A stretch of 64,000 bases of DNA from Candidatus Saccharimonadota bacterium (lineage in GTDB: Bacteria; Patescibacteriota; Saccharimonadia; CAILAD01; BJGX01). This document shows, in pieces, positions 8,676 to 64,000 of this stretch (position 1 is the first letter of the stretch; every line of letters starts with the position of its first letter). The stretch is from positions 141,931 to 205,930 of the forward strand of contig JACPPH010000002.1 of the NCBI GenBank assembly GCA_016191105.1, in the 5' to 3' direction. Under the pieces are notes generated by a model. That model was not told the origin of the DNA. It saw nothing but the letters and a program-made list of their open reading frames with translations, and did not search any database. The position numbers and the translations under genes are program-made.

Positions 8676-9011
8676 TTAGCTCAACAGGTCTTCGGCCTGA
8701 ATCTCGTTCCAGTAGCCGTCGGGTTGCCCGCGGTAGAAAACTACTTTTGTAGATGTTTCTTCTGGGTCGTAAACATACTGAACGCGATTGGCGCTACCAG
8801 TTTGATGATAAAAAGTTTTCTTATCAATAATTACTGGCCCGGCAATTCGCTCAATCTTATACTTAACATTGTCTTTCTCAAACTCAATACTCTCGACAGT
8901 TCGAGTAAGGTCTTTGTTGTCTTCGAGTGGTTCGGTTTTGCGGTTGGAGTTGTCGATTTGATATTTTTCATCTATCAGATCAATTAACTCGTCCCAGGCA
9001 CGATTGGTCAT
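8676..9011 (-). CDS. hypothetical small protein
   Basis: 111-aa ORF that overlaps the upstream Zn-ribbon gene by 4 nt. No recognisable motif. Confidence 0.4.
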   Translation of the reverse strand: MTNRAWDELIDLIDEKYQIDNSNRKTEPLEDNKDLTRTVESIEFEKDNVKYKIERIAGPVIIDKKTFYHQTGSANRVQYVYDPEETSTKVVFYRGQPDGYWNEIQAEDLLS

Positions 9012-10558
9012 AGGCTGGTAGCAATTTTGATTAATTGGTCTTGGTTCAGACCGCTAGTATTGCCCTCTAGTCTATACCAAGTGCCCTTATTAATCCAGCT
9101 GGCTTGGTTGTTGCCATACATGTATATGGTTAACCCCTGAGCCTGCAAAGCCAGGTAGTTGTCAGATTTCTGAGTCACATAGTTTTCAGCTAAGGCTTGA
9201 GAGTCCCAGTCGGTCTTAGCCTCTTGCACCTGCATCTGCTGACTGCCGTTTGAATTGCTAACATTGTAACTAATAAGTCCTGGACTGGCCTGAATGTCGC
9301 CCGATACCTTCCAGCCTGAGGGCAAATAGTTTGGCAAACTGGCGTTAATACCCGCCTTGCCACTGGCGACTTTAAAAGCCAAGTTTGGATAGTTGATTTG
9401 CCATACATACAATCCAACCACCACCACACCAATTAGGCTTAGAGCCACACTGGCCGGCTTAAGACCAGGCTTTTTCTGCCCGGGCTGAGAATTATTTAAT
9501 TGAGCTATGACGGTTGGCACGCTATTGGGTTTAGGTATAAGGTGAGTCGGCAGCCCCATTTCCACTACTCGGCCTGAGCCAGGTGTCTGCCTGGCATTGG
9601 TTAGTTGGCTATTGGCCCTGGTTGTGGGCGGGAGTATGCTTGGTGGCTGAACAGAATTAACGGCTTTAACTACAGGTGCAGTTTCGGCAGTCGACAGGCC
9701 AGGGCTTAAGGCGCTCAGAGTGTTGTGTTTGGGCGGAATGTACTCCACCCCCGGGCTGGCCGCAGGCCGAATATCGCTCATGACTTTGAGGCTGGACTGG
9801 GACGGTTTGGCGCTGCCCTGAGTGGCTTTGGCTAGTTCATTAAGCTGAGCATCAGAAAAAACAGACTCGTTTTTGGTATCCAACCCCCCCAGCTCACTGC
9901 CGACATTCTCACTCGCAGGGGCTGGATTAGGCTTGGCTAAGTCTAGGTTTTTAATTGGCGCCACCCTCGACACAGTGGGTGCAAATTGAGGTTGGGGAGC
10001 CGACTTTGGAGTCTTTTGACCCTCTAAAAGTCGTTGTAGTGAAGACTCGTCGTGAGCATGCTGGACTTTAGATGTGATTTCTGCAGCCGCCTTGGTTTGA
10101 GGCTGACTTCTGCTGTCGGGCTGGGTCGTTGGGACTACAGCGGGCTGCGGCACTGGCTGTGCTTGGCTGATTGCCGGTTGTTCAGCAGGGTTTGAAGACA
10201 GTGGCTTGGGCGCTCCGGCTGGTTGCTGTGAGCTTGATTGTGCGATAGGTTCTGGCTGTATCGGCTTGGTGCTGCTTACTGCATTGGCCGATGCTGGTTC
10301 GGCCGGTTTTGGCGCAATGACTGTAGATGGGGGTGCAGCCAGGGGAGCTAGGGCAGGCGCTGCTTGGGTGTTGGTACCATCAGCCAGTGGTGCTGTGGCA
10401 GCTTTGACCGCCACATCTGCAACCGGTGCGCCGGAGCTTGCTGTTTGGCTGTCTGTAGTTTGGACGGGCGTACCACAGTTAGCACAAAAAGTCTTACCTG
10501 CAATGGTTATTTGATTGTCGGAACTACAATTTGCACATTGATTCATACTAAAACTCAC
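9008..10558 (-). CDS. Zinc-ribbon membrane protein with a long Pro/Ala/Gln-rich linker and C-terminal extracytoplasmic domain
   Basis: N-terminal CANC...CANCG zinc ribbon, about 350 aa of low-complexity PAQS sequence, one TM helix (LSLIGVVVVGLYVW), and a ~130-aa C-terminal domain. Confidence 0.5.
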   Translation of the reverse strand: MSFSMNQCANCSSDNQITIAGKTFCANCGTPVQTTDSQTASSGAPVADVAVKAATAPLADGTNTQAAPALAPLAAPPSTVIAPKPAEPASANAVSSTKPIQPEPIAQSSSQQPAGAPKPLSSNPAEQPAISQAQPVPQPAVVPTTQPDSRSQPQTKAAAEITSKVQHAHDESSLQRLLEGQKTPKSAPQPQFAPTVSRVAPIKNLDLAKPNPAPASENVGSELGGLDTKNESVFSDAQLNELAKATQGSAKPSQSSLKVMSDIRPAASPGVEYIPPKHNTLSALSPGLSTAETAPVVKAVNSVQPPSILPPTTRANSQLTNARQTPGSGRVVEMGLPTHLIPKPNSVPTVIAQLNNSQPGQKKPGLKPASVALSLIGVVVVGLYVWQINYPNLAFKVASGKAGINASLPNYLPSGWKVSGDIQASPGLISYNVSNSNGSQQMQVQEAKTDWDSQALAENYVTQKSDNYLALQAQGLTIYMYGNNQASWINKGTWYRLEGNTSGLNQDQLIKIATSL

Positions 10559-33484: not shown

Positions 33485-33815
33485 AAGCTATAAGCTCCTT
33501 TCATAGAAGTATTAGTTAATTAAATAGCGTTCTCGTTCGGTTGTGTATATGCAATGTAAAAGGACTTTTGTATCTATTGAGCAGTAATGGTACTATATTA
33601 TACGCTTTAAGTCAATAGATAATTGTTATGTTTTTGCAGGGTTTTTCGAAAGGCCCTGAGATCAAGTTTTTTATGAAAGCCTGATCTCAAAGACTTATAG
33701 TTTCGGGTGGGTGTCGTCCCGGAGACCGAAGTCTCCAGGACGAGCGACACCCAAGAGTGGACTCTGTGTGCCATCGCACCGCGAATTGAGTCCGCTAATT
33801 CGCGGTGTTTAAGCC

Positions 33816-35306
33816 CTAGGCGGGCTTGGGCGACGGACCGGGCGGGGCCGTCGTGGGTGGCACCGGCGCCGAGCTGGGCGGCGTTGCCCTGGTGGTGGGC
33901 GGGCTTCCCCCCGGGCACAGCTGCGGACAACCGGTGCTCGGGTTCGGCACTCCTGGATTGATGTCCGGGTTGGGCGGCCTGGGGGTCACCCCACCGCAGC
34001 CACTTGGACCACAGCCTTTCACCGGCGCCGGCACAGCCGGATTGCTGATAGGCTGCTGCTCGGCGATCTTGCCCTGAGGCTTGGTCGTCGGCGTCGTCAC
34101 CGTCGGCGGTGGGATGGTCGGCCCTCCCGTCGGCGGGGGCGTCACCGTCGGCGGTGGGATTGTTGACTCCGGTGGCAGGTTTGGCGGAACCGGCACCTGC
34201 GGCACGTTCGGCGTGGGCTTGAGCGACCCCCTGTTCCCGCACGAGGCGAAGAACATGATGTATGCGTTGTCCTTCCAGAACTTCACGTACAGCCGGGGCG
34301 TGCTGGTGACGTAGTCGAACTGCACCACGGTACCGTTTTGCACGACTGTGTTGTACAGGCGGGTACCCGCTGGCAACACTCCACGTTCCACCATGGAACC
34401 TCGAACGAAGTCCAGCACGATGAACAGATCCCAACCGGCCTTGGCGGCATCGCCGACCGGGCGGGGGTCCTCGTAGGGCTTGTCTTGGCTGGCCATGATG
34501 GTCCGCGCCGCATCGTCCAAGAATGCCGGGCTGCCAACACCCTTCAGGAGCAAGTCGGAGAACATGTCCTCCGGCGTGTTTCCTTGGATGCCGTTGAGCA
34601 CAACACACTTGGTCTCACACGTCACGCCCACTCCCTGTACGAGGCCACGGCGCTGGGCAATCTTCTGAACGAAGATGGCAAGGTCGACGGTGTCGGGCTG
34701 ATGCGGTGGCGCCGTGCTTGGCGGTGTGGTAGCCATAGTTGTTGGCGCAGCTGTGCCTTGCGGTTGTGTCCCGCTCGGTACTGCCGTGGTGGTGGAAGGA
34801 GCCGTGGTGTCGCTGGGCGATGTGCTTGGCGTTGAACCACCCCCGTTGCTGGTGGTGGTAGTGACGCCGGCCAGGATTGCGACGCACTTGGTGTCTGGCG
34901 GGTCCACTCCGAGTTGCTTGAGCTTGTCGGAGCTTTCCTGCACCACCTTGGCGTCGTCGCTGCCAACTCCCTGGCACAACTCGACTGTCAGCTTGAGACA
35001 TTCGGTCGGCGTGATGCCGGCCTCTTGCAGCTTCTTGTCGTCGTCGGAGTTGTTGGTGACTCCGATCCGCTTCTGGCAGTCCTCCAGACTCACCTTGGCC
35101 TTGCGCTCTTCGGTGGTTGCGGGCGGAACAGACGCGGTCGGCGCTGGCACCTGGGTGGTGTCGGAGCCTTGAGGCCCAGGTGATTGCTGGGTTGGTTGGG
35201 CACTCGCAGTGCCGCTTTTGGCTGCAATACCGGCTACACCCACCGCCCCCAAAAGGACAGTGAACACAACCGCGCAAGCAGCGAAGATCGCATGACCCCT
35301 GGTCAT
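33816..35306 (-). CDS. GC-rich block 1: secreted/membrane-anchored Thr/Pro-rich protein with Cys-containing repeat modules
   Basis: Real start is the ATG at 35306 (MTRGHAIFAACAVVFTVLLG...) preceded by AAGGAGGTG; the track's longer ORF adds upstream shadow sequence. It has a signal/TM, T/P-rich linkers, three C-x(25-30)-C modules, and a ~130-aa C-terminal domain of unknown family. GC about 68% with GC3 codons. Confidence 0.5.
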   Translation of the reverse strand: MTRGHAIFAACAVVFTVLLGAVGVAGIAAKSGTASAQPTQQSPGPQGSDTTQVPAPTASVPPATTEERKAKVSLEDCQKRIGVTNNSDDDKKLQEAGITPTECLKLTVELCQGVGSDDAKVVQESSDKLKQLGVDPPDTKCVAILAGVTTTTSNGGGSTPSTSPSDTTAPSTTTAVPSGTQPQGTAAPTTMATTPPSTAPPHQPDTVDLAIFVQKIAQRRGLVQGVGVTCETKCVVLNGIQGNTPEDMFSDLLLKGVGSPAFLDDAARTIMASQDKPYEDPRPVGDAAKAGWDLFIVLDFVRGSMVERGVLPAGTRLYNTVVQNGTVVQFDYVTSTPRLYVKFWKDNAYIMFFASCGNRGSLKPTPNVPQVPVPPNLPPESTIPPPTVTPPPTGGPTIPPPTVTTPTTKPQGKIAEQQPISNPAVPAPVKGCGPSGCGGVTPRPPNPDINPGVPNPSTGCPQLCPGGSPPTTRATPPSSAPVPPTTAPPGPSPKPA

Positions 35307-35529
35307 CCGATCACCTCCTTGTTGTTGTCTGGGTGATGTAAAGCTGCGAACTGGGTGCAGGTTTTCTCTCCTGTACTCAGCCCACATATCAGATTACACT
35401 CTTTTCGTCTATACACAAGTATAAATCTCACATTTGGGTTGAGCGGGTGGCGCCCGGCGGGAACTCGATCCGAAGATCGAAGCTCCCTGCCGGGACCACG
35501 AGGTAGGGGCCAGAACGTCATCCTGACCG

Positions 35530-36006
35530 CTACTTTGTGCCGTGCTTGAACAGCGCCGTGCAGCCGATGATGCCACCGATCACAAACGGGGCAAGAAATG
35601 CCACGATCCGTGGCCCGCCTGCGTCCGTGAGCATGGCAGCCACGACTGCACTGCAGATTGCTGCGAACACCGTTGCAAAGCAGCCCATGAGCACGCCCAC
35701 AAGGATGTGGAGGCTCTTGCCATTGGCTGGGTCTGCGCCGCCGCCAGCGGGTGGCGGCGGTGTGGCGGCATTGGCCGATGGATCGCGTGTGAGGAACCAG
35801 AAGGTCCCCCCTGCGCCACCCAGGCCAACCACCAGGGCGGTGAGGAATCCATACAGCCACGACCAATTGAGTCCTGCGACTACAAGGGTCACGAGCAGCA
35901 GGACTCCGCCAATCACCCCGCTGATGATCAGCTGGGTTTGCTGGTCGAGCCCACCTCCGGGCGATGGGGCCGGCGCGGCATAGCGCGCACGGTTGAAACC
36001 AGGCAT
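35530..36006 (-). CDS. GC-rich block 1: small 4-TM membrane protein
   Basis: About 158 aa from the ATG at 36006 (ribosome-binding site AAGAAGGTGGG). Four hydrophobic helices and a Pro/Gly/Ala-rich loop. Followed by a nested hairpin at 35459-35500. Confidence 0.45.
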   Translation of the reverse strand: MPGFNRARYAAPAPSPGGGLDQQTQLIISGVIGGVLLLVTLVVAGLNWSWLYGFLTALVVGLGGAGGTFWFLTRDPSANAATPPPPAGGGADPANGKSLHILVGVLMGCFATVFAAICSAVVAAMLTDAGGPRIVAFLAPFVIGGIIGCTALFKHGTK

Positions 36007-36029
36007 AATGCCCACCTTCTTTCGTATAT

Positions 36030-36107
36030 GTTCGGGAGCGGTACCTGGTCGTGAACTTCATTGTTCATGTGCCCTCACGGGGGCAATATACCAGGATAGC
36101 GATCCTG
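36030..36107 (-). repeat. Copy 1 of a conserved ~76-bp upstream element (promoter/5'UTR) before the 4-TM gene
   Basis: About 90% identical to 36471-36545. Shares an invariant 25-mer GGCAATATACCAGGATAGCGATCCT and an embedded 7-bp-stem hairpin. It is positioned about -15 to -90 relative to the start codon. Confidence 0.6.
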
Positions 36108-36179
36108 AAATTGTGGGTCACGAGCGGCCGCGCTCCGGGGTAAACCGGAGCACAGCCTCTCGCGTGGCGAGATCACGTG

Positions 36180-36454
36180 AGCACTTGGTCGATGATCTCG
36201 AGCATTGCGGCCTTGAACGCCTTGTTGGCATCTTCGTCCACAACGTCCGGGAAGGACTTCAAGAAGTCGGGGCCACAGAGGTCGATCATGGCCTGCACGC
36301 CTTCCTTGTTGAACTTGACCGTGCCGCCGCCGCTGATCTCCAGTTGCTCGAGAGCAACCTTCTGCAGCAGCTCCAGGGCGCGGGCCTTCATGGCCGGGTC
36401 GGCGTCGGCTGTTGCCGACTTGGACTTCTCGTAGCGGTCTTTGCTGAACGCCAT
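36180..36454 (-). CDS. GC-rich block 1: 91-aa all-helical protein of unknown function
   Basis: ATG at 36454 preceded by CAGGAGAA: MAFSKDRYEKSKSATADADPAMKARALELLQKV...LEIIDQVLT*. No WXG or other known motif. Confidence 0.45.
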
Positions 36455-36470
36455 GATGATTCTCCTGCAT

Positions 36471-36545
36471 GTTCGTGAGCGGTACCTGGTCGCGAACCGA
36501 AGTTCACGTGCCCTCACAGGGGCAATATACCAGGATAGCGATCCT
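36471..36545 (-). repeat. Copy 2 of the conserved ~76-bp upstream element before the 91-aa gene
   Basis: Aligns to 36030-36107 with a 2-nt indel in the hairpin loop. The stem shows a compensatory change (A-C mismatch in copy 1, G-C in copy 2). The loop is TTCG in the transcribed orientation. Confidence 0.6.
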
Positions 36546-36570
36546 AACATTCTGTTGAGTTGGCCGGGGA

Positions 36571-36599
36571 GCTCCGCTGCACACAGTGTGCAGCGGAGC
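36571..36599 (-). terminator. GC-rich hairpin terminator after the J-domain-like gene
   Basis: GCTCCGCTGCACA-CAG-TGTGCAGCGGAGC has a perfect 13-bp stem. A second 7-bp hairpin TTTACCG-CTC-CGGTAAA follows. Confidence 0.5.
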
Positions 36600-36626
36600 C
36601 AACCCCGTTTACCGCTCCCGGTAAAT

Positions 36627-37874
36627 CTAGTCGTCGGCGAAGACCTCCTCGATGATGTCGAAGAACGCGGCGTAGAACACGTCGCGATCGGACTCGAAGT
36701 CACCGTTGGGATACTTCTCGAGGTAGAGGTTGAGGGCGCAGAACGCCACATCGGTGATCCCTTCCTCACTGAACGACCATGGCTTGCGAAGCGGGTCGCG
36801 CGCCCACATGCCGACGGGTGTGCGCTCGATGCACTGCTTGGCTGTCGCCACACGCGCGTCGAAGTTCGGTGGCCGAACATTGGAGCGTTGCTGTCCCGAA
36901 GGACCGCCGCGCGAACCAGCACCCGAACCACTGCTACCACCCGGTCGACTCGACGAGCCGCCACTGGCGCCAGCACCCGACCCGGACTTGGGCCGTGCGC
37001 CTCTGCCAGAGGAGCCACCTTGCGAGCCGCGTGGTCGTTGCCCATTGCCGCCGTTGCGAACGAAGATCCCCTCGAGATTCTCTCGAGTGATGTCGTCGTT
37101 CCGGTCCGGATGGGCAAACGCCAAGACGCTTCGCCAGCAGAACTTGGCCCACTTCTTGCGGTCGCCGTAGGTGAACTTCTCGCCCTTCGGGTCCACCTTG
37201 CGAGCCTCGGCCTCGAAGATCACCATGATCTGGGTCATCCAACCCCGGTACTGGCGATACAAGTCCTGCTCTTCTGGTGTACGACGCGCGAAGGCGGTGA
37301 AGCGCGCCAGGTTGTCGTCGTCTCGTGGTGGCGCGCCGAACTCGGCATGCAAACCCTGGACACCCGAGAAGTTCTCGCGGATGCCAGAGATCGCGGTGTT
37401 CAGCTCTGTGATCTCTCGATCGTTCATGTCGTCTCCCTCCTGGGGGTCTTTGGTTCCCCCCGGAGGGGATGTAGGTTCTGGTTCTTCTGCAAGATCGAGC
37501 ATGAGCGTGACGATGCCACGCTTAACCATCTCGAAGCTGGCGTTGGCTTTGCGTGTCGCGTTGAGGTTGACCCCAACAATCCGACGCACGAGCCGCCACG
37601 GCTCGGGGTCTTGCTCGGTCGCTTGTACGGGTATGCCTTGTGCTTCGAGCCATGGCACCCAGTCTTCGTAGGAAAGGGTTGGCTCGGGGTCTTCGCCTTC
37701 TGGTGGTGTGTCACCTGCCCCTGAATCTTCAAGGACTTTACCAAGTGCCACCAAGAAGTCTTCTTCACCCACCTGTCCGTCATCGGCAAGCTTGTCGCCC
37801 AGTTCAACAATGAGCTTGGGCTTAAGGTCGATCGAAACTTCCAGGTCAGCACATAGCGTTTCGAGATGCGGCAT
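36627..37874 (-). CDS. GC-rich block 1: J-domain-like (HPD motif) protein with acidic N-terminus and Gly/Ser/Arg-rich linker
   Basis: 415 aa; ATG at 37874 with a GGAGGGAAG ribosome-binding site. The segment KKWAKFCWRSVLAFAHPDRNDDITRENLEGIF matches the J-domain helix II-HPD-helix III. It is followed by an NGGNGQRPRGSQGGSSGRG... linker and a C-terminal domain of unknown family. Confidence 0.5.
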   Translation of the reverse strand: MPHLETLCADLEVSIDLKPKLIVELGDKLADDGQVGEEDFLVALGKVLEDSGAGDTPPEGEDPEPTLSYEDWVPWLEAQGIPVQATEQDPEPWRLVRRIVGVNLNATRKANASFEMVKRGIVTLMLDLAEEPEPTSPPGGTKDPQEGDDMNDREITELNTAISGIRENFSGVQGLHAEFGAPPRDDDNLARFTAFARRTPEEQDLYRQYRGWMTQIMVIFEAEARKVDPKGEKFTYGDRKKWAKFCWRSVLAFAHPDRNDDITRENLEGIFVRNGGNGQRPRGSQGGSSGRGARPKSGSGAGASGGSSSRPGGSSGSGAGSRGGPSGQQRSNVRPPNFDARVATAKQCIERTPVGMWARDPLRKPWSFSEEGITDVAFCALNLYLEKYPNGDFESDRDVFYAAFFDIIEEVFADD

Positions 37875-37912
37875 TGCTTCCCTCCTCGGGTAGTGCCCCG
37901 GGAGGGGCGTCT

Positions 37913-38009
37913 TGTTTACTGTTACCTACAGGAGCCTGCGTACGGCATTCAATCTTGGGCGGCAAGATCGCTTACACGTACACAGGTGCCTGTAGGCAGT
38001 TTGTAAACT
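37913..38009. repeat. ~95-bp imperfect palindrome with reiterated CCTACAGG/CCTGTAGG/GTAGGCAG motifs at the block 1 boundary
   Basis: Left arm TGTTTACTGTTACCTACAGGAGCCTGCGTACGG and right arm CGTACACAGGTGCCTGTAGGCAGTTTGTAAACT, centred on AATCTTGGGCGGCAAGATCG. The motif recurs at 38055-38062. The GC content drops to backbone level right after it. Confidence 0.55.
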
Positions 38010-54567: not shown

Positions 54568-55374
54568 CTAGTCCGACCAGACTTCCGGTGCGCTGTGCCG
54601 GGTTTGCCGGGCGCCATGCCAGTCGGTCTCGAGCAGAACCCGATTGCTGGCCAAGTTCCACTCCAGACGAGGAACCCCCACCCATGTGCCGTCTGGCAGG
54701 CAGAGCTCATAGCCAGCCATCTCGACGTAGGGCAGACGCTTGCCATCCTGCTGCTGAAGCAGCTTGGGGTGGTAGGCGTAGGCCGCCAAGACCTCAGCGT
54801 GGGCCAAGTTCCTGGACTTCTTCTCGGATCGCTGACAGATGTTGCCAACCATCCGACCTTTCGAGGGCTCCCAGTTCGCCAACAGATCGATGTGGACCAG
54901 GTGGATGCCCCGCTCGTAGTTGCACGCAGAGGAGTTGAGACGGAGATGATCCGCATCGGCGCACATACGTTCGGCACGAGTGTTGTCATGATCAACGCGG
55001 ATCACTCGCCACCACGTCTCGAAGGTGGCATCGGGCGAGCCGAGGTCGACATAGAGCAGCAACAGGTCGTCGATCTGTTGCGCATGCTCCAGATCGTCCT
55101 CACTGAAGACACGCTCGAAGTCCTCGTCGCTGAGGGCGTAGTTCCAATACCCGGCGTTGTATTCACGCAGGAGCGCCATCTGCTCATGGATTGTCAACAG
55201 CTGAGCGTTGTAGCGGTCATACAGGCCCTCAACCGAGAACTTGCCGTCCACCAGAGCTTGCAGCCCCGCGATTGCCTCGTCAGCTGGACGCTTGCCACTC
55301 TTGACGAATTCGAAGAGGCGGTTGTACACCACCCCCAGGTCGCCGAGCTCCTGTCGTGTAGCTCTCTTGGCCAT
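54568..55374 (-). CDS. GC-rich block 2: 268-aa protein of unknown function
   Basis: ATG at 55374 after AAAGGAGG. About 65% GC with GC3 codons. Helical N-terminus and an alpha/beta C-terminal domain with a conserved His (GIHLVHIDLLANWEP). A nested hairpin GAAGAAGGGG...CCCCTTCTTC (54487-54539) lies downstream. Confidence 0.5.
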   Translation of the reverse strand: MAKRATRQELGDLGVVYNRLFEFVKSGKRPADEAIAGLQALVDGKFSVEGLYDRYNAQLLTIHEQMALLREYNAGYWNYALSDEDFERVFSEDDLEHAQQIDDLLLLYVDLGSPDATFETWWRVIRVDHDNTRAERMCADADHLRLNSSACNYERGIHLVHIDLLANWEPSKGRMVGNICQRSEKKSRNLAHAEVLAAYAYHPKLLQQQDGKRLPYVEMAGYELCLPDGTWVGVPRLEWNLASNRVLLETDWHGARQTRHSAPEVWSD

Positions 55375-56547: not shown

Positions 56548-56627
56548 CACAAAGTTGTCTTCACTTTCTGTTCTGCGACAGAGACGGCACTCGTGCTCGA
56601 ACAGAAGCATTCAGACAACTTTGCTTT
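56548..56627 (-). ncRNA. Candidate structured RNA / complex terminator in the 280-bp gap between rseP and the CPBP protease gene
   Basis: Nested inverted repeats: CAAAGTTGTC...GACAACTTTG (10 bp) enclosing TTCTGTTC...GAACAGAA (8 bp), with an additional GTCC-GCGCG-GGAC hairpin upstream. No ORF. Confidence 0.3.
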
Positions 56628-56658
56628 CTGATTTTCGAATGTCGGAGAACTACGGTAA

Positions 56659-57738
56659 TTAGCGCAGTCGGTTTATGTCAGATATACTCACTACAATCAG
56701 CAGTATAATTAAGGCTGCAAAACCCAAAACGTGCACCAGGTTTTCGCGCGCCGGAGTAATCTTAACTCCAACCCGGCGCAAGATTATCAGTAGCTCTCGG
56801 CCACCATCAAGCGCCGGTAGTGGCAGGGCATTTATTACCGCTAGGCTCAATGATATCGAGGCCACAAACACCAATATGTAGCGCCAGCCAAACTGAATGA
56901 TCTGCGAGAAGATCGAGACAATACCAATTGGCCCAGCTACCTGCTCACTGACCTTGGCTTGAGTAAACAGACCGACAATTAGGCCAGCAAAAGCACCTAT
57001 TGTGGCCTCAACAAGCTGCCAAACCACCACCACCGCGGCAACCGGTGCCTGCCACCATGAATAACGCATAAGCTGCAAACTATCTGAGGCCACGCCTAAG
57101 TTGCCCTTGTTTGGATCGGTACCGAGTGTCGCTGTTGCCGTGTGCTCGCCCTGCGAGTTCTTGTAAACCAGAGTTATCTGTTGTCCGCCATGAGATTTGG
57201 TAAAGTCCTGCAACTGCTGATTGCTACTCAACATCTGGCCATTCACAGAAACCAGTTGGTCGGCCGTCTTGAGGCCGGAGCGGGCGGCGGCCGAGTTGGG
57301 CGTTACGGCCAAAACCGTTAGCTTGGCCTCGCCAATAGGTGCGGGCTGAATCGGGCCGAAACTTGGTAAGCCGCTTGGCAGCAATGGCGGCATGCCAACA
57401 ATAAGTAGAAATGTAATCAATAAATAAGCAATCAAAAGATTCATGGTAACGCCTGCCATTACGATCTTGGTCTTTACCCAAGCCGACTTGCTGGCAAAAC
57501 TGTCGGCACCCTTGGCCTCGCCATCTTCGCCTTTGAGGCGCACAAAGCCACCAATTGGAAAGGTGTTTATGCTAAACAAGGTACCGTTACTCTTACGACC
57601 CCATAGCCGCGGCGGAAAACCAACGCCAAACTCATCGACTTTTACGCCGTTGCGGCGGGCAGCCTTATAGTGCCCCCATTCATGAGCAATCACTAATACC
57701 GAGAACACCAACAGAACCAGAACAATCGTTAAGATCAT
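56659..57738 (-). CDS. rseP: Site-2 protease RseP/RasP with PDZ domain
   Basis: 359 aa with an HEWGHY zinc motif, a PDZ domain, and a C-terminal LDGG motif. Confidence 0.85.
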   Translation of the reverse strand: MILTIVLVLLVFSVLVIAHEWGHYKAARRNGVKVDEFGVGFPPRLWGRKSNGTLFSINTFPIGGFVRLKGEDGEAKGADSFASKSAWVKTKIVMAGVTMNLLIAYLLITFLLIVGMPPLLPSGLPSFGPIQPAPIGEAKLTVLAVTPNSAAARSGLKTADQLVSVNGQMLSSNQQLQDFTKSHGGQQITLVYKNSQGEHTATATLGTDPNKGNLGVASDSLQLMRYSWWQAPVAAVVVVWQLVEATIGAFAGLIVGLFTQAKVSEQVAGPIGIVSIFSQIIQFGWRYILVFVASISLSLAVINALPLPALDGGRELLIILRRVGVKITPARENLVHVLGFAALIILLIVVSISDINRLR

Positions 57739-58436
57739 TTGCCCCCACCATAGCGTCGTTCGCGGCCATTAAAGTCGTCGATCACATTATCGAGCCAGGC
57801 TACATCGAAGTCTGGCCAGTAAGCCGGCACAAAATTTAGCTCAGAGTAGGCACTGTCCCAAAGCAAGAAGTTACTCAGCCGTTGCTCGCCGCTAGTTCGC
57901 ACTATTAGGTCTGGTGCGGGTGTATCGTGAGTAAAAAGGTGGCTTTTTATTACCTCTTCATCCACTTTGTCGGCGCTGATCTTGGAATCAACAATCTCCT
58001 TAACCGCCATTACGATCTCTTGCTGACCACCATAGTTAAAGCACAGATTCAACGTGCCAGCAGTGTTTTTGGCAGTTTTGCTCTCGGTTTCGTCGATGGC
58101 TTGTTGCAGCTTCGCACTCAAACGCTCACGAAAGCCCCAAAATCTGATTCGCACGCCCTTGCTATTAAGCTCTTCGAGATCTTGAGTAAAAATCCGATAA
58201 GCCAGGTTCATTAAATATGACACCTCGGCTTCTTGTCGGTTCCAGTTTTCGGTCGAAAATATGTAAGCACCCACCTGGGCAATACCTCGATCAAAACAGG
58301 CTAGGGCAATCTCTTTGAGGCGTTCGTAGCCAGCCTTGTGGCCGTCGAGCTTGGACAATCCACGCTCAACTGCCCAACGGCGGTTACCATCGACAATAAA
58401 GGCAATATGGTTTAGCTGGCTTTTGGCTTTGGCCAT
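57735..58436 (-). CDS. uppS: Undecaprenyl diphosphate synthase
   Basis: 233 aa with DGNRRWA and LWDSAYSE(L) motifs. Confidence 0.9.
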   Translation of the reverse strand: MAKAKSQLNHIAFIVDGNRRWAVERGLSKLDGHKAGYERLKEIALACFDRGIAQVGAYIFSTENWNRQEAEVSYLMNLAYRIFTQDLEELNSKGVRIRFWGFRERLSAKLQQAIDETESKTAKNTAGTLNLCFNYGGQQEIVMAVKEIVDSKISADKVDEEVIKSHLFTHDTPAPDLIVRTSGEQRLSNFLLWDSAYSELNFVPAYWPDFDVAWLDNVIDDFNGRERRYGGGK

Positions 58437-58449
58437 ACTGGGGCTTTGG

Positions 58450-59010
58450 CTAGATAGCCATTAGCTCCTTTTCTTTGACCTCAACGGCCTCAGAAACCTT
58501 GCCCTGATAACGTTCAATCAAAGAATTCAAATCCTTTTCAACTCGAATTAGGTCATCCTCGGTAATTTTTTTGGCCTTGGAATCCGATTTAGCCTCATTC
58601 AAAACTTCGTGGCGCCCGTTACGCATACTCACATTGGCTTCTTCAGCTTTTTGACCTAGTAACTTAACCATTTGTGAGCGAGTTTCTTCGCTCATTGGCG
58701 GAATGTTCAGTCGCAGCGTGTGGCCATCGCTACTCGGGTTTAACCCTAGGGCCTGGTGTTCACGAATGGCCTTGTCGATTGCACTTAAATTAGCCTGATC
58801 CCAGGGTTGAATTTGAATGGTTTTGGCATCGGGCGTGGTGATCGTAGCCAAACCCTTAATGGGCATGGATTGGCCATAAACCTCAACCTTAATGCTGTCC
58901 ACCAAGCCGGCATTAGCCCGGCCCGAGCGCAGCCCAGCTAGATCACCTTCCAGGTGCTCTAAGGCGGCCTTCATTTTGGTTTCAGCAGCGTTTAAGTACT
59001 GTTGATTCAT
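58450..59010 (-). CDS. frr: Ribosome recycling factor
   Basis: 186 aa with typical RRF sequence. Confidence 0.9.
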   Translation of the reverse strand: MNQQYLNAAETKMKAALEHLEGDLAGLRSGRANAGLVDSIKVEVYGQSMPIKGLATITTPDAKTIQIQPWDQANLSAIDKAIREHQALGLNPSSDGHTLRLNIPPMSEETRSQMVKLLGQKAEEANVSMRNGRHEVLNEAKSDSKAKKITEDDLIRVEKDLNSLIERYQGKVSEAVEVKEKELMAI

Positions 59011-59018
59011 GCTGGTTA

Positions 59019-59633
59019 TTATACCGCAAGCGTTGGTTGGTCGCCACCAAGGCTTAGGCGTACAAAGCGTCGAATCACAATGTTTTCACCTAGCTTAGCC
59101 ACTAGAGCTTGGCGCATCTGTTCGATGGTTTGCTCAGGATCTTTTACAAATTTTTGATCGCTTAAGCAGACAGCCTCGTAGTATTTGTTAAGCTTGCCCT
59201 CAACAATTTTGTCGGCGTGCTCGGCTGGTTTGCCGCTGGCCACCACCTCTTTTTTAATAACTTCTTTTTCTTTCTCTATCACATCTTCGGGCACCGATTC
59301 TTGGTTCAAGTAGACCGGCTCGGCAGCGGCTATGTGCATGGCCAGATCGTGAGTAAAGGCTTTAAAGTCGTCGGTGCGGGCTACAAAGTCGGTTTCGCAA
59401 GCCACTTCAACTAGCACACCAATCTTGCCACCATGAATGTAGCTTTCAATTACACCATTTTCGGCCGCTCGATCAGCCTTTTTGGCGGCTTTGGCCAAGC
59501 CTTTGAGGCGTAAAACTTCGAGGGCCTTGTCGTAGTTACCCTTAGCTTCTTCGAGTGCAGCTTTGGCATCCATCATGCCCGCCCCGGTGGCTTCGCGAAT
59601 CTTTTTTACATCGTCGATACTAAAATCGGCCAT
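59019..59633 (-). CDS. tsf: Elongation factor Ts (short form)
   Basis: 204 aa with an N-terminal UBA-like motif (IREATGAGMMDAKAALEEAKGN). Confidence 0.85.
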   Translation of the reverse strand: MADFSIDDVKKIREATGAGMMDAKAALEEAKGNYDKALEVLRLKGLAKAAKKADRAAENGVIESYIHGGKIGVLVEVACETDFVARTDDFKAFTHDLAMHIAAAEPVYLNQESVPEDVIEKEKEVIKKEVVASGKPAEHADKIVEGKLNKYYEAVCLSDQKFVKDPEQTIEQMRQALVAKLGENIVIRRFVRLSLGGDQPTLAV

Positions 59634-60481
59634 TACTTCTCCTCCTTTGTAGCAACTTTGGCGGCCTCCATATCTGCATCTTTGGCGGCTTTGGCCCTGT
59701 AGGCCTCGTGGCCAACTCGGGCAGCCTCGGCAATTTTTGTAGTAATTAGTGTAACGGCCTTAATGGCGTCATCGTTAGCTGGAATGGGGTGCTCCACTCG
59801 GTCAGGATCAGCGTTGGTGTCGCAAATAGCAACCACCGGTATGCCTAGCTTGTGAGCCTCGGCAATGGCAATGTCCTCACGCGGCATATCAACTACAAAC
59901 AGTGCCGCTGGCACGGTGTCCATGTCGACCACGCCACCAAAGATCTTTTCAAGATTTTCGAGCTCTTTTAGATTCTTAGAGCGGTCTTTTTTGCTCATGT
60001 CGGCAAAGTCGTTTTCGACTTGTTGAGAGCGCAACTTCTTCATGCGCAACACGCGCTTGCGGATAGTTTCTAGATTGGTTAGCATGCCACCCAGCCAGCG
60101 CTGATTTACATAGGGCATCTCGGCACCCGCGGCCGCTTTAGCCAAGACATCTTTGGCCTGGCGTTTGGTGCCAACAAATAAAACGTTGCCGCCACGTTTA
60201 GTGACGTCTTCGATGAACTTTTCGGCACTCTTTAGAGCCTCGGCAGTTTTGGTGAGATCCAAAATGTGCACCCCGCCTCGAGCAGTGTAAATAAATTCAC
60301 CCATTTTGGGGTTCCAGCGAGCCGTTTGGTGACCAAAATGAGCCCCGGCCTCGAGTAGCTCGCGCAAGATTGGGTCAATCTTTGTCGTTGTTTTTTTGGT
60401 GGCTGGCTTTGCAGCAGCAGTTTTGACTGTAGACGTTTTGGGCGCAGCTTTTTTAGTAGCTGCAGTTGTTTTTTCGCTCAT
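59633..60481 (-). CDS. rpsB: 30S ribosomal protein S2
   Basis: 282 aa; an Ala/Lys-rich N-terminal extension followed by a conserved uS2 core. Confidence 0.9.
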   Translation of the reverse strand: MSEKTTAATKKAAPKTSTVKTAAAKPATKKTTTKIDPILRELLEAGAHFGHQTARWNPKMGEFIYTARGGVHILDLTKTAEALKSAEKFIEDVTKRGGNVLFVGTKRQAKDVLAKAAAGAEMPYVNQRWLGGMLTNLETIRKRVLRMKKLRSQQVENDFADMSKKDRSKNLKELENLEKIFGGVVDMDTVPAALFVVDMPREDIAIAEAHKLGIPVVAICDTNADPDRVEHPIPANDDAIKAVTLITTKIAEAARVGHEAYRAKAAKDADMEAAKVATKEEK

Positions 60482-60680
60482 ATTTCTCCTTGATAGCCTC
60501 GCTGCAGTATCCCAGTTGGGAGGAGCTTGCTGCAGGTGCGTGATTTAATACATTTAAGTGCAATAATTGTAACAGATAGGCTTAAGATGGTCAAAAGCTT
60601 CATAAAATGACGAAAGCCCCCGGCGAGGGAGTCAGAGACTCTCGTCGAGGGCTGTTGGTGTTCTTCGAGCTCGAGTGGGC

Positions 60681-61163
60681 TCAGGCCGGCACGAGGAGTT
60701 CGAATTCCTGAGTGACCGGGTTAAACCGGCGGAGGTTCTCGAGCTTTGGAACCTCGGGGAGGAGCTCGAGCGTGCCGGGCGGAAGACGAATGTTGTCCGC
60801 CGAGATCAGCACGAAGTCCATGAAGATCATCTTGTAGTCACCCAAGGGGCGCACAAGCTCTTCGAGACGCTTCGAGTGACCATCTCCCTCATCGAACAGG
60901 TTGAGGAAGGCATAGGCCCGAGACTGGCGCTGCGAAAGCAGAGGGGATCCTTCTCGCCGAACGCGACCAAGCTCCTTGGTGAAGGCGCCATAGTCATCGA
61001 TCCCCAGCGGGATAACGAAGCCCATTTGGCCCGAGTTCTCAGGGTTCCTCTCAGGATCAAACCCCAACCCGAACACGAACACCGCGCCGAAGGTCACGGC
61101 AACGAACCTCGCCACTGCGTACCCTTCATGCTCGCCTTGGCGGCGAAATTGCTGTGGCTCCAT
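60681..61163 (-). CDS. GC-rich block 3a: 160-aa protein of unknown function
   Basis: ATG at 61163 after GAAAGGGG. About 65% GC. A hairpin with a T-tract (60622-60660) lies downstream. No motif recognised. Confidence 0.45.
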   Translation of the reverse strand: MEPQQFRRQGEHEGYAVARFVAVTFGAVFVFGLGFDPERNPENSGQMGFVIPLGIDDYGAFTKELGRVRREGSPLLSQRQSRAYAFLNLFDEGDGHSKRLEELVRPLGDYKMIFMDFVLISADNIRLPPGTLELLPEVPKLENLRRFNPVTQEFELLVPA

Positions 61164-61206
61164 TGGGGAACCCCTTTCTGTCGAAGATCAGAAACACAGT
61201 ATACCA

Positions 61207-61497
61207 CTAACGGTGTTGCTTGTCAATGGTACTTAATGCCTCCCAGATTACATCAAATTTGGCCTGGAGATCGGCTCGATACCAATCAGGGCGCTTAGAG
61301 GCCCAACAGAACTGGTCGACCGCTACAATCCAGCACATCTGGAGCTGTGTTTGGGACAGTACTTTACACGCAGTCTGTGCAAAAACCTCCCACAGAGGCT
61401 CTAATTCACCCAAAGGGCAGGTTTTACGCAGCACCGACTTCAGTTCTCGCTTTCCAGGAAGCTTAACCTGGTCCATATCAAAACTGCTCACTTTCAC
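61207..61497 (-). CDS. Small Trp/Cys-rich hypothetical protein (mid-GC segment between blocks 3a and 3b)
   Basis: 96-aa ORF with a GTG/ATG start. A TATAAT sits at about 61520. GC is about 50%, unlike the flanking GC-rich blocks. Weak support. Confidence 0.3.
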   Translation of the reverse strand: MKVSSFDMDQVKLPGKRELKSVLRKTCPLGELEPLWEVFAQTACKVLSQTQLQMCWIVAVDQFCWASKRPDWYRADLQAKFDVIWEALSTIDKQHR

Positions 61498-61548
61498 TCC
61501 GCCGGGAATGAGTGTGACAGTAAGATTATACTCCTAAAATGGCAAATG

Positions 61549-61564
61549 CCCCCAGAACTGGGGG
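61549..61564 (-). terminator. Rho-independent terminator after the block 3b gene
   Basis: CCCCCAG-AA-CTGGGGG with a 7-bp GC stem, followed on the transcribed strand by CATTTGCCATTTT. Confidence 0.55.
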
Positions 61565-61593
61565 CGTCTGCCTCCATCCTGAGGGCTTGCGTA

Positions 61594-62295
61594 CTAGTCG
61601 AGCCTTGTCATGATGCCCGTCGGATCCAGCCGCTCGAGCGCAGCAGTTACCGCCACAGCCTTTGCCACCATTTCGCCGCCTCGGGCAACGCGGCTTTGGC
61701 CGGTACTGCCAACGGCCTTAGTAACCGAATTGACCAGGCAGAAGCCTGGGTGGCTAGAGCCCAGGTTGGGGTTCTTGTCACGTTCAGCGTCTTCATAGAT
61801 CAACTCCAGGAGCCGGTCGTCAGAGACCACCTCGAAGTTTATCTTGGTCACTATCTCGGTAACTGCAGTCCTGTTGTGGTCGAAGCCCGCCTGATTGTCC
61901 ACGTCGGTCGTGTACTCAAACTCCAACATCAACAGATTGCCCGACTGCAGCATCCAGAAGCTTCGGTATTTCTTGGCCTCACGAAAGTGATGCTCAACAA
62001 GCAAGATCGCCCTCGTCGAAAGCATCTCGCTCTGCAGGAAGCTGTCGTCGTAGACCCGCTGGGCGACGTTTCGGAATTGGTATGAACCAGCGCCCGGACG
62101 TTCCCAAAGGTGCTTCTTGATTGCCTCTGGCTTCATGGTGACATACTCCATGTGTGGCCCGAGGTCGTGCAGCCACAGCAGCACGAAGTCGTGCCACTCC
62201 TCTGGAGTGACTTCGGCGGGCGGGATGTATTCACCGCCGCGCATTACGGCTCGGCGAACCGCGGCCTTCACTTCTGGCCTGTTGGACGAATCCAT
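61594..62295 (-). CDS. GC-rich block 3b: 233-aa protein of unknown function
   Basis: The likely start is the ATG at 62295 (MDSSNRPEV...) preceded by AAAGGAGCC; the track's longer ORF begins in upstream shadow sequence. About 62% GC. No motif recognised. Confidence 0.45.
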   Translation of the reverse strand: MDSSNRPEVKAAVRRAVMRGGEYIPPAEVTPEEWHDFVLLWLHDLGPHMEYVTMKPEAIKKHLWERPGAGSYQFRNVAQRVYDDSFLQSEMLSTRAILLVEHHFREAKKYRSFWMLQSGNLLMLEFEYTTDVDNQAGFDHNRTAVTEIVTKINFEVVSDDRLLELIYEDAERDKNPNLGSSHPGFCLVNSVTKAVGSTGQSRVARGGEMVAKAVAVTAALERLDPTGIMTRLD

Positions 62296-62413
62296 TGCCA
62301 GGCTCCTTTGCTGTACCTTGGGGCGTACCCCTACCAGTATCGTTGCGTCGTCGCAGGTTTGCGACAATCAAGCTAATTGAACCATTAGCGGAGTTCATAT
62401 GCAAACGTAACAG

Positions 62414-64000
62414 CTATCCAGCTAAATCGTACTTCTTGAGCTCAGCCTTGCGCTTGTCTTTGGCGCCAATGGTTTGCAAGGTTAGCAGTTCGGCGTAAAT
62501 GCCTTTTTGCTTGGCCAACTGATCGGGTGTGCCCATTTGCGACACCTTACCGCCTTTGAGACCCACAATCATATCGACATGCTCAATGGTGCTCAGACGG
62601 TGGGCAATAATCATGGTGGTACGGTCTTTCATAAGCCGCTCCAGCGCCTCCTGCACCTCATGCTCGGCTTTGCTATCAAGACTACTGGTGGCCTCATCGA
62701 GTATCAAAATTGATGGGTCTTTCATAATCGCTCGAGCAATGGCAATGCGTTGCTTTTGGCCGCCACTCAGCTTAACGCCGCGCTCTCCAATTTCGGTATC
62801 AAAGCCCTTGGGCAGCTTCTTGATAAAACCATAAGCATTGGCCGCCTTGGCAGCCTCAATCATATCTTTTTCGGCTGGGTCGTCTTGGCCATAGGCAACG
62901 TTCTCACGCACGGTGCCGCTGAATAGTTGGGGCTCCTGGAAGACCACGCCAATATTTCGGCGCAGGCTCTTTTGAGTGACCTCGTTCACATCTTGGCCAT
63001 CAATTAATATTTGCCCACCAGTAGTCTCGTAAAAGCGCAGCATTAGATTGGCAATAGTGCTCTTGCCCTCGCCGCTTTCGCCCACCAGGGCAATCTTTTG
63101 ACCCGGCTTAATGGTAAAGCTAATGCCGGTTAAAACTCGCTGACCTTTTTCGTAAGCAAAGTCGACCTTGCGATATTCAACTTGCGACTTAGTAATCTTG
63201 AGCTCTTTGGCGCCTGCTTCGTCGGTAATTGCCGCTTTGGTGTTCATAATTTCGAAGTAGTCACGGCTATCGGCTGTAGCTCGCTGCAGAGCATCAACAA
63301 TAAAGCTAGAGCCAAACAACGGAAACTCCGCCTGGTTAACTAAAGTAATTAACAGCACCACCGTGCCCAGGCCATAGCGGCCGGTAAAAGCCTGCCAGAT
63401 TATAACCACGTATATACCCACAAACACCAGATTTAGAATGAGTCGGCGGGCCACATCGTAGCGGTGCCATTTATTGGACTGGTTGCGGGTGAGGCTCTCA
63501 ATGTTGCGTCGCTTTTTGCTAAAGAAGTTTAGCTCGCTAATTTCGGTTACAAACGACTTAATAACTCTAATCTGGCTAATTGACTCCACAAAGCGGCCAT
63601 TGCTAACATCGCGCTCAGTGTTAATTTTGCCTTGCACCTTTTGCCAAGAGGTCGAGCTGAGGTGGGTTATCCAAATGTAGGCTGGAAATATAACCGCTAG
63701 TAGCACCGCCACCGGCCAGCTAAACCAGGCAATAACGGCCAGGGTGATAGCAGTCGTTAAAAAGAACTGTATAAAGTTATTGCTAAGAGTTTGCATTAAT
63801 GTGCTTATGCCGGTAATTGAGCGCTCCAGGCGAGCTGTGATCTTACCAGTAATTTCGTTGTCGTAAAAACCAATTGGTAGTTTGAGCAGGTGATCAAAAT
63901 ACCGCTCCGAGAGTAGGTTGTTGAGCCTAGCAGCCATATTGTCGCCCAAGTAGCCGTTAACGTTGCTAAGTAGAGTAATTACAACATTTACAACCAACAG
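62414..64000 (-). CDS. ABC transporter, fused permease/ATP-binding (MsbA-like), N-terminus beyond window end
   Basis: Six-TM exporter domain followed by Walker A GESGEGKST, signature LSGGQKQR, and Walker B ILILDEATS. The N-terminus runs off the window. Confidence 0.85.
   Translation of the reverse strand: MLVVNVVITLLSNVNGYLGDNMAARLNNLLSERYFDHLLKLPIGFYDNEITGKITARLERSITGISTLMQTLSNNFIQFFLTTAITLAVIAWFSWPVAVLLAVIFPAYIWITHLSSTSWQKVQGKINTERDVSNGRFVESISQIRVIKSFVTEISELNFFSKKRRNIESLTRNQSNKWHRYDVARRLILNLVFVGIYVVIIWQAFTGRYGLGTVVLLITLVNQAEFPLFGSSFIVDALQRATADSRDYFEIMNTKAAITDEAGAKELKITKSQVEYRKVDFAYEKGQRVLTGISFTIKPGQKIALVGESGEGKSTIANLMLRFYETTGGQILIDGQDVNEVTQKSLRRNIGVVFQEPQLFSGTVRENVAYGQDDPAEKDMIEAAKAANAYGFIKKLPKGFDTEIGERGVKLSGGQKQRIAIARAIMKDPSILILDEATSSLDSKAEHEVQEALERLMKDRTTMIIAHRLSTIEHVDMIVGLKGGKVSQMGTPDQLAKQKGIYAELLTLQTIGAKDKRKAELKKYDLAG

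Follow-up and report, generated by a model that had tools for sequence, protein, structure and literature searches.

How did two GC-rich genes come to lie between two conserved operons of a Saccharibacteria genome, and what may they do there? This question is raised by a stretch of 64,000 nucleotides (nt) of Candidatus Saccharimonadota bacterium (assembly GCA_016191105.1, contig JACPPH010000002.1, positions 141,931 to 205,930 of the forward strand), hereafter the window, which belongs to a 214-kb contig of a metagenome-assembled genome entered at NCBI as 'Candidatus Saccharibacteria bacterium', an uncultured organism from groundwater. An earlier reading of the letters alone (the sequence-only reading) had described two GC-rich genes at this place, here 3a and 3b, on either side of a backbone-like segment with a small open reading frame (ORF), orf96. 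The interpretation that we favour, with moderate confidence, is that the locus is an accessory islet of two separately terminated, foreign-looking orphan genes in the spacer between the MarR-ABC and rpsB operons, that the leader of 3b probably gates its translation, and that the DNA was most likely taken up in two events.

The three ORFs lie on the minus strand between the ABC exporter gene and rpsB in the order 3b, orf96, 3a, with the coordinates and sizes that the sequence-only reading had given them (233, 96, and 160 amino acids (aa), respectively; Table 1). Genes 3a and 3b have the same orientation as the flanking operons, namely, that of the ABC exporter, whose upstream MarR gene is beyond the window, and rpsB-tsf-frr-uppS-rseP. 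The Logan contig SRR12113392_183621 (9.4 kb), an independent assembly of run SRR12113392, is 100% identical to window positions 56585–64000 and covers the MarR-ABC operon, all three ORFs, the rpsB operon, and both junctions; the junctions are thus borne out, and a chimera is unlikely.

The compositional mosaic of the locus is real and well beyond chance. In windows of 200 nt, GC content was 0.575–0.605 at 60.6–61.2 kb (3a) and 0.55–0.605 at 61.5–62.4 kb (most of 3b), and it was about 0.50–0.51 between the two blocks. The GC content at third codon positions (GC3) was 0.727 in 3a and 0.731 in 3b (z = +5.3 and +5.4, respectively) and 0.536 in orf96 (z = +1.2), with 50 backbone ORFs taken as the reference (0.482 ± 0.046, maximum 0.59). 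The dinucleotide relative-abundance distances of 3a and 3b to the backbone (196 and 148, respectively) exceeded the 95th percentiles calculated from backbone pieces of the same size (141 and 136), and the distance of the orf96 segment (157) was below its percentile (169). GC windows, GC3, and dinucleotide signatures therefore agree in placing two GC-rich blocks around a backbone-like segment, as the sequence-only reading had it. Judged from this composition, 3a and 3b would be of foreign origin.

It was established that 3a and 3b are real, separately terminated protein-coding genes. Both were called by NCBI (HYX70_01265 and HYX70_01270, respectively) and by Prodigal, and both are periodic in GC content at codon positions 1/2/3 (0.68/0.38/0.73 in 3a and 0.61/0.39/0.73 in 3b). 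According to a model trained on 38 backbone genes, their in-frame codon log-odds per codon (0.197 and 0.235) were within the backbone range (0.279 ± 0.089), with values of at most 0.099 in the five other frames of each gene and a wrong-frame maximum of 0.017 in the backbone. The long plus-strand ORFs over 3a and 3b are shadow ORFs of the kind commonly seen antisense to GC-rich genes. The ribosome-binding site and terminator previously ascribed to each of the two genes were found: Shine–Dalgarno (SD) sites precede 3b (AAAGGAG) and 3a (AAAGGGG), and each stop codon is followed by a GC-rich hairpin with a U-rich tract, as in Rho-independent terminators. A sigma-70-type promoter-like site close to the consensus precedes 3a, and another promoter-like site precedes the rpsB operon (Table 1). 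The terminator that had been noted for 3b (CCCCCAG..CTGGGGG with a T-tract) is located at 61541–61572. About 50 nt past the stop codon of the ABC exporter gene, there is a perfect 6-bp stem, GUCGCA-AACC-UGCGAC (62353–62368, minus strand), which is extendable to 8 bp; with no U-tract after it, this stem is unlike a terminator, and transcription of the MarR-ABC operon may therefore continue into 3b.

Of the three genes claimed for the locus, 3a and 3b thus stand, and orf96 is doubtful. Its coding score (0.069) was the best of its six frames and lower than that of every backbone gene, Prodigal called a product of 89 aa from an internal ATG, and NCBI has no annotation for it, the locus tags 01265 and 01270 being consecutive. 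No convincing promoter was seen between the 3b terminator and the orf96 start, and the GTG of orf96 and its GGAG are fully paired in a predicted hairpin of −17.4 kcal/mol (61470–61527, minus strand). Because of the marginal coding score, the lack of annotation and of a promoter, and the buried start, it is unlikely that orf96 is expressed as a conventional gene. The backbone-like 380-bp spacer mainly supplies the terminator of 3b and the promoter of 3a. Metagenome matches of orf96 from a pattern scan (two loci, 34% identity) were antisense to a HAD-hydrolase gene and were discarded as spurious.

Profile and sequence searches, and in the case of 3b a structure search, gave no assignable function for the products of 3a, orf96, and 3b, in accordance with the sequence-only reading. 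None of the three matched Pfam, NCBIfam, PHROGs, PADLOC (at E ≤ 1), or the PDB chains; with regard to defence and toxin–antitoxin families, PADLOC had no match for 3a, orf96, and 3b, and Pfam had none for 3b, orf96, and P0005 (the relative of 3b introduced below), type III toxin families included. A word-indexed search of 5.8 billion proteins returned 3b and 3a themselves only. Nothing was found by tblastn of the three products against phage and plasmid collections or by scans of IMG/VR with 3a, the 3b/P0005 alignment, P0005, and two proteins of other islets. An exhaustive phmmer search of 3b against 1.84 billion cluster representatives revealed one credible relative, P0005 (E = 7 × 10−5 for the whole library), a protein of 218 aa with 25% identity to 3b over residues 1–170 (pairwise BLASTP E = 2 × 10−14). 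The alignment with P0005 starts at residue 1 and, together with the SD site, backs the ATG of 3b at 62295. Two further phmmer matches, P0003 and P0004, were rejected as repeat artefacts, being long repeat proteins whose many matching stretches all fell on the Ala/Val-rich C-terminus of 3b, and a profile built from 3b and P0005 found no additional family member. Judging by these searches, the 3b/P0005 family is extremely rare, with two members found in public data. In the low-confidence structural models of 3b, helices at both ends flank a four-stranded meander; Foldseek found no match in PDB better than E = 0.05 (template modelling (TM) score of about 0.2–0.3, VirB8/TraE at the top), and this was taken as meaningless.

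P0005 is encoded on L082, a 5.3-kb contig with 41% GC from run SRR22936146, where its gene is situated between thrS-VanZ and the convergent rplT-rpmI-infC genes, and its GC3 is 0.53 versus 0.32–0.50 in the neighbours. No relative of 3a or orf96 was found beside P0005 on L082, which argues that 3b is an autonomous unit and not part of an obligatory 3b-orf96-3a module. A small protein without Pfam domains (111/112 aa, 26% identity, pairwise E = 1 × 10−9) is present in both genomes, at 8676–9011 of the window (minus strand) and at 233–571 of L082 (plus strand); the sharing of this lineage-specific protein suggests that L082 comes from a related organism, probably a patescibacterial one. The genes of 3b (61591–61598, minus strand) and P0005 (L082 4425–4432) also end in the same 8 nt, CGACTAGT, comprising an Asp codon, a TAG stop, and T; the rest of the two C-termini is unrelated, and this coincidence may be due to chance.

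The leaders of the two genes are far more alike than the proteins. A sequence of 23 nt, CAATGGATTCGTCCAACAGGCCA, around the start codon of 3b (62297–62275) recurs exactly in L082, and overall 28 of 29 nt are the same (blastn E = 9 × 10−9, small search), a near-identity that contrasts with the 25% identity of 3b and P0005. The exact copy in L082 lies 40 nt upstream of the real start of P0005, and a second, diverged copy lies on that start. The copies of the start-codon hairpin have an outer stem, a 4-nt/1-nt internal loop, an inner UGGA/UCCA stem, and a loop of UUCG; of the AUG, the U and G are within the inner stem, and the SD site is directly 5′ of the hairpin (predicted folds of −9.5 to −13.5 kcal/mol). 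In the second L082 copy, the outer stem GGCCUG/CAGGCC is replaced with GGUUUG/CAAACC, i.e., there are two compensatory changes from C-G to U-A. Both loci have two tandem hairpins capped with UNCG loops, 37–40 nt apart, the second of which covers the AUG. In the alignment of the four copies (10 pairs), 92% of cells were paired, and 4 of the 10 pairs were changed on both sides; 1 of 500 column shuffles was as good, and controls with slid partners were paired in at most 49%. A covariance model scored the upstream hairpin of 3b at 36 bits, this hairpin being one of its training sequences, and revealed no further hairpin copy in the 64-kb window.

The conserved asymmetry of the internal loop would point to a folded single strand (RNA or single-stranded DNA) and not to a symmetric double-stranded operator. 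Since the second hairpin encloses the AUG and begins directly behind the SD site, 3b is probably gated in its translation, and as far as sequence comparison goes, the leader is probably a translational control element; the gate would be released by opening of the hairpin or operated by a factor that binds it. Only tRNAs reached the gathering score of Rfam 15 in the window, and permissive Rfam scans of 60.4–62.5 kb and of the L082 leader gave chance-level matches, none of them on the hairpins. The best result of blastn of the hairpin motif against phages and plasmids was E of about 1, and Tandem Repeats Finder (TRF) found no tandem-repeat array in the window or in L082. An 18-nt hairpin core detected in two IMG/VR contigs was set aside as plausibly due to chance, since it lies inside phage structural genes and lacks the context of this hairpin. 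The duplicated hairpin unit is located at 3727–3818 of L082, and its upstream, better-conserved copy opens a 27-codon upstream ORF, MDSSNRPQQKRFDNGFVQQTTHSPYNG, which overlaps the P0005 start out of frame and could be a leader peptide or a scar of the 40-nt duplication. The initiation regions of all islet genes fold at −11 to −18 kcal/mol, compared with −5.8 ± 3.3 kcal/mol in the backbone, which GC content may explain.

The hydrophobic segment of 3a (approximately residues 15–35) has Arg-Arg in front of it, and by the positive-inside rule the C-terminal domain of about 125 residues would probably be outside; 3a is thus modelled as probably a single-pass, signal-anchored membrane protein. A match of this segment to PsbI in Pfam was sub-threshold and was not retained. 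As a working model, held with low confidence, 3a would be a surface-exposed accessory protein and 3b a cytoplasmic one with hairpin-gated translation.

Table 1. Features of the islet between the MarR-ABC and rpsB operons and of its flanks (window coordinates)
Feature	Coordinates	Strand	Details
ABC exporter, 3′ part	62414..63997	−	upstream flank; PF00664, PF00005; 594 aa in full; backbone composition, GC3 0.56
Upstream hairpin of 3b leader	62312..62345	−	outer stem UACU/GGUA, inner stem GGGG/CCCC, UACG tetraloop; loop 37 nt before the start-codon loop
SD site and start-codon hairpin of 3b	62275..62309	−	SD AAAGGAG at 62309–62303; AUG at 62295–62293; 28/29 nt as in L082 3727–3755
Stems of the start-codon hairpin		−	outer GCCUG 62303–62299 / CAGGC 62281–62277; inner UGGA 62294–62291 / UCCA 62286–62283; UUCG loop
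3b	61594..62295	−	233 aa; NCBI HYX70_01270, MBI2797914.1; soluble, acidic; one distant homologue (P0005)
Intrinsic terminator of 3b	61533..61590	−	long GC-rich hairpin, −29.8 kcal/mol, z = −3.96, then CAUUUGCCAUUUU
orf96	61207..61497	−	96 codons from GTG; 5 Trp, 4 Cys; backbone-like GC; coding doubtful
Promoter-like site of 3a	61198..61226	−	TTGACA, 17 nt, TG-TATACT; 11/12 matches; overlaps the end of orf96
3a	60681..61163	−	160 aa; NCBI HYX70_01265; acidic, isoelectric point 5.1; one predicted N-terminal transmembrane helix
Intrinsic terminator of 3a	60602..60653	−	hairpin of about −28 kcal/mol, z = −2.3, then UUUCGUCAUUUUAU
Promoter-like site of rpsB operon	60566..60594	−	TTGACC, 17 nt, TG-TACAAT; in AT-richer, backbone-like spacer
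rpsB	59633..60481	−	downstream flank; first gene of rpsB-tsf-frr-uppS-rseP

The surroundings of the islet are those of a core chromosome: the window contains genes of ribonucleotide reductase, gltX, murein and cell-division genes, secA, several tRNA synthetase genes, mreBC, rseP, uppS, frr, tsf, and rpsB, and its annotated ORFs are housekeeping genes or orphans throughout. The sequence-only reading had taken the islet to split a conserved ABC/rpsB neighbourhood. Exact look-ups of rpsB, tsf, and frr gave matches in this sample only, and a scan of genome contigs with rpsB gave mostly Actinobacteria (45–54% identity), with no Saccharibacteria among the matches listed. No domain of an integrase, recombinase, transposase, or HUH enzyme was found in the ORFs of the 64-kb window. 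The region 60.6–62.4 kb is flanked by no meaningful direct repeats of the attL/attR kind, tRNA genes occur in the window only at 1.6 kb and 19.5 kb, and the search for terminal inverted repeats and insertion sequences gave only short chance-level pairs or terminators, with no transposase. As there is no mobile-element machinery, the likeliest route would be that foreign DNA was taken up and joined to intergenic spacers by illegitimate recombination, in two separate events. Natural competence of Saccharibacteria is reported in two publications (PMC10633639, PMC10187176), which makes DNA uptake a plausible route.

Two more GC-rich islets, at 33.6–38.0 kb and 54.57–55.37 kb, were found in the window; they consist of orphans without Pfam domains, are located in intergenic spacers of core clusters, are co-oriented with their neighbours, and have strong SD sites and terminator hairpins. 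Both are internal to one Logan contig of 54.6 kb. The largest islet (33600–38000, about 61% GC) has four co-oriented orphans between a DUF5663 gene and the gene of a DUF11/DUF7619 surface protein, among them one for a Pro/Thr-rich protein anchored in the membrane by its N-terminus and one for a protein with several membrane passes. The other (54568–55374, minus strand) is a single gene of 268 aa with a GC3 of 0.77 and no match to any family; its neighbours are mreB and the gene of an Rce1-like protease. It has a strong SD site in front, a start codon within a small hairpin, and a long terminator hairpin behind it. Comparison of the proteins of all three islets with one another revealed no paralogy. 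By dinucleotide signature, 3b is near the two other islets (delta* 64 for 33.6–38.0 kb and 89 for the second), and 3a is far from them (delta* 159–200), which hints weakly at a common source of 3b and the other islets and at a separate arrival of 3a. The sequence-only reading had left a choice between two independent insertions and one composite cargo; the solitary occurrence of P0005, the promoter-like site of 3a's own, and the differing dinucleotide signatures weakly favour two independent insertions. A GC bump at 9.5–10.5 kb was considered as a further islet and dismissed, since it corresponds to a 516-aa protein (9008–10558, minus strand) with a high GC content at second codon positions (0.51) and a normal GC3 (0.49); in this protein, a zinc-ribbon-like CxxC pair at the N-terminus is accompanied by a long stretch rich in Pro, Ala, and Gln.

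Among known systems, the locus is closest in kind to horizontally acquired ORFan islets, which likewise have atypical composition and dinucleotide signatures and place a few homologue-less genes with their own expression signals between conserved operons; it is an ordinary orphan islet of this known class, though an unusually GC-rich one. Unlike most acquired ORFan DNA, which is AT-richer, it is GC-richer than its host genome, and it differs from such islets in having no integrase, tRNA, repeats, insertion-sequence remnants, or known donor. The stem-loop of 3b, which comes right after the SD site and encloses the AUG, resembles the replicase operators of MS2 and Q-beta, bound by coat protein, and RNA thermometers, and its structure may be kept through compensatory changes as in operator hairpins. 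Unlike these elements, the 3b leader has an unrelated sequence without an Rfam match, is a tandem pair with an asymmetric internal loop and UNCG loops, and is known from sequence alone.

Four other origins were weighed for the islet or for 3b, along with a toxin–antitoxin role for the latter, and none of these is favoured by the data. That 3a and 3b are native, fast-evolving, lineage-specific genes whose GC excess is intrinsic and no trace of transfer is unlikely: the lack of mobility genes, repeats, and tRNA, the co-orientation with core operons, the backbone-type promoters in the spacers, and the likewise raised GC of P0005 relative to its own genome are all as expected of such genes, but a GC3 about five standard deviations above the backbone mean and over its maximum of 0.59, the deviant dinucleotide signature, the presence of at least three such islets in 64 kb, all of orphans, and the extreme sparseness of the 3b family speak against it. 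Capture of 3a and 3b from the actinobacterial host of the Saccharibacteria cell, i.e., transfer from host to epibiont, is slightly more doubtful. Their GC-rich composition would suit such a donor, and PMC10633639 describes cultivated Saccharibacteria as growing on Actinobacteria and as naturally competent. However, the search of 5.8 billion proteins gave no homologue of either gene, actinobacterial or other, the exhaustive search of 3b yielded nothing actinobacterial, and its only relative is encoded on L082, which has 41% GC and a small lineage-specific protein in common with the window. In high-GC Actinobacteria, GC3 is typically about 0.85–0.95, and the GC3 of 0.73 in 3a and 3b is well below that. 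The suggestion of the sequence-only reading that homologues might occur together in actinobacterial genomes was therefore not borne out, no actinobacterial homologue having been found, by the word-indexed search only in the case of 3a. An artefact of assembly or binning, by which foreign GC-rich DNA was joined to a Saccharibacteria contig, would be in keeping with a metagenome-assembled genome and an abrupt change in composition; it is nevertheless very improbable, because the independent Logan assembly is identical through both junctions and all three ORFs, the islet genes match their neighbours in strand and spacing, the surrounding spacers are backbone-like and contain the rpsB promoter, and the other two islets are internal to the 54.6-kb Logan contig.

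The leader of 3b invites two comparisons of another kind. As a lone, promoter-poor orphan ORF that goes with a conserved site able to form a hairpin, 3b recalls integron cassettes with attC, and it might be a mobile cassette whose 5′ hairpin is a single-stranded DNA recombination or insertion site, integron-attC-like or of the HUH type, for which known enzymes are not encoded nearby. The near-perfect nucleotide conservation of the site against 25% protein identity, its tandem duplication at the L082 locus, the position of both family members between housekeeping genes and their higher GC than that of their genomes, and a 7-mer, GTCCAAC, which fits the attC inverse core RYYYAAC in two of the three near-identical copies, agree with this. 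It is nonetheless improbable, since 3b ends at its 3′ side in an ordinary terminator with no second site, no other copy of the site was found in the 64 kb, and the window contains no integrase (intI), HUH enzyme, or transposase; there is no paired core site or cassette array, and the hairpin, of 29 nt, is shorter than attC sites, which are imperfect palindromes of about 57–141 nt (RYYYAAC ... GTTRRRY) at the 3′ end of the ORF, in arrays next to intI. Its position right after the SD site and over the AUG is that expected of a translational element. A wider version of the idea is about as improbable: 3b or P0005 with its twin-hairpin leader might be a new self-contained cassette moving between Patescibacteria genomes, with the hairpin serving either for recombination or insertion or as an operator at which a conserved trans-acting factor works, and the other GC-rich orphan islets as cargo of the same route. 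Finally, the two structured units, 37–40 nt apart and directly upstream of an ORF of about 220 aa, are reminiscent of ToxIN, CptIN, and TenpIN, in which a tandem array of near-identical direct repeats of about 34–45 nt precedes the toxin gene; the ToxI and TenpI repeats have a periodicity like that of the hairpins, which likewise stand immediately upstream of the gene of a protein of a few hundred residues. That 3b and its leader form a type III toxin–antitoxin-like module with an RNase toxin, or another defence system, is however scarcely credible: PADLOC and Pfam gave no match, type III toxin families included, TRF found no tandem array, the two diverged units share the hairpin core only and are not homogeneous direct repeats, and the second overlaps the start codon instead of being parted from the ORF by a terminator.

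Several observations weigh against the accessory islet of foreign orphans with a gated leader and have tempered our confidence in it. The word insertion draws on composition as its only basis. The GC excess of P0005 over its own genome fits repeated transfer and fits equally a compositional bias intrinsic to the family. Gene 3b has no promoter-like site that could be found and may accordingly depend on read-through from the ABC operon. The word-indexed search, in which 3a had no homologue, was its only large protein search. The covariation of the hairpin was measured on four copies from two loci, one of them chosen after its fold had been seen, and the shuffles ignore relatedness. Finally, AlphaFold2 modelled 3b with low confidence (mean predicted local distance difference test of 41 alone and 46 with P0005), so no fold backs a biochemical role.

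On the accessory-islet interpretation, the locus adds one more case of compositionally foreign orphans in the reduced genome of an epibiotic bacterium, and it indicates that such islets can occupy the spacers of core operons without mobile-element machinery, which fits DNA uptake by competent Saccharibacteria. The product of 3a, like the secreted or membrane proteins encoded in the larger islet, could act as a variable surface factor relevant to host attachment. The twin-hairpin leader is the one element worth following in an otherwise ordinary islet; if it proves widespread, it would represent a new class of cis-regulatory RNA of Patescibacteria or a marker of a new mode of gene delivery.

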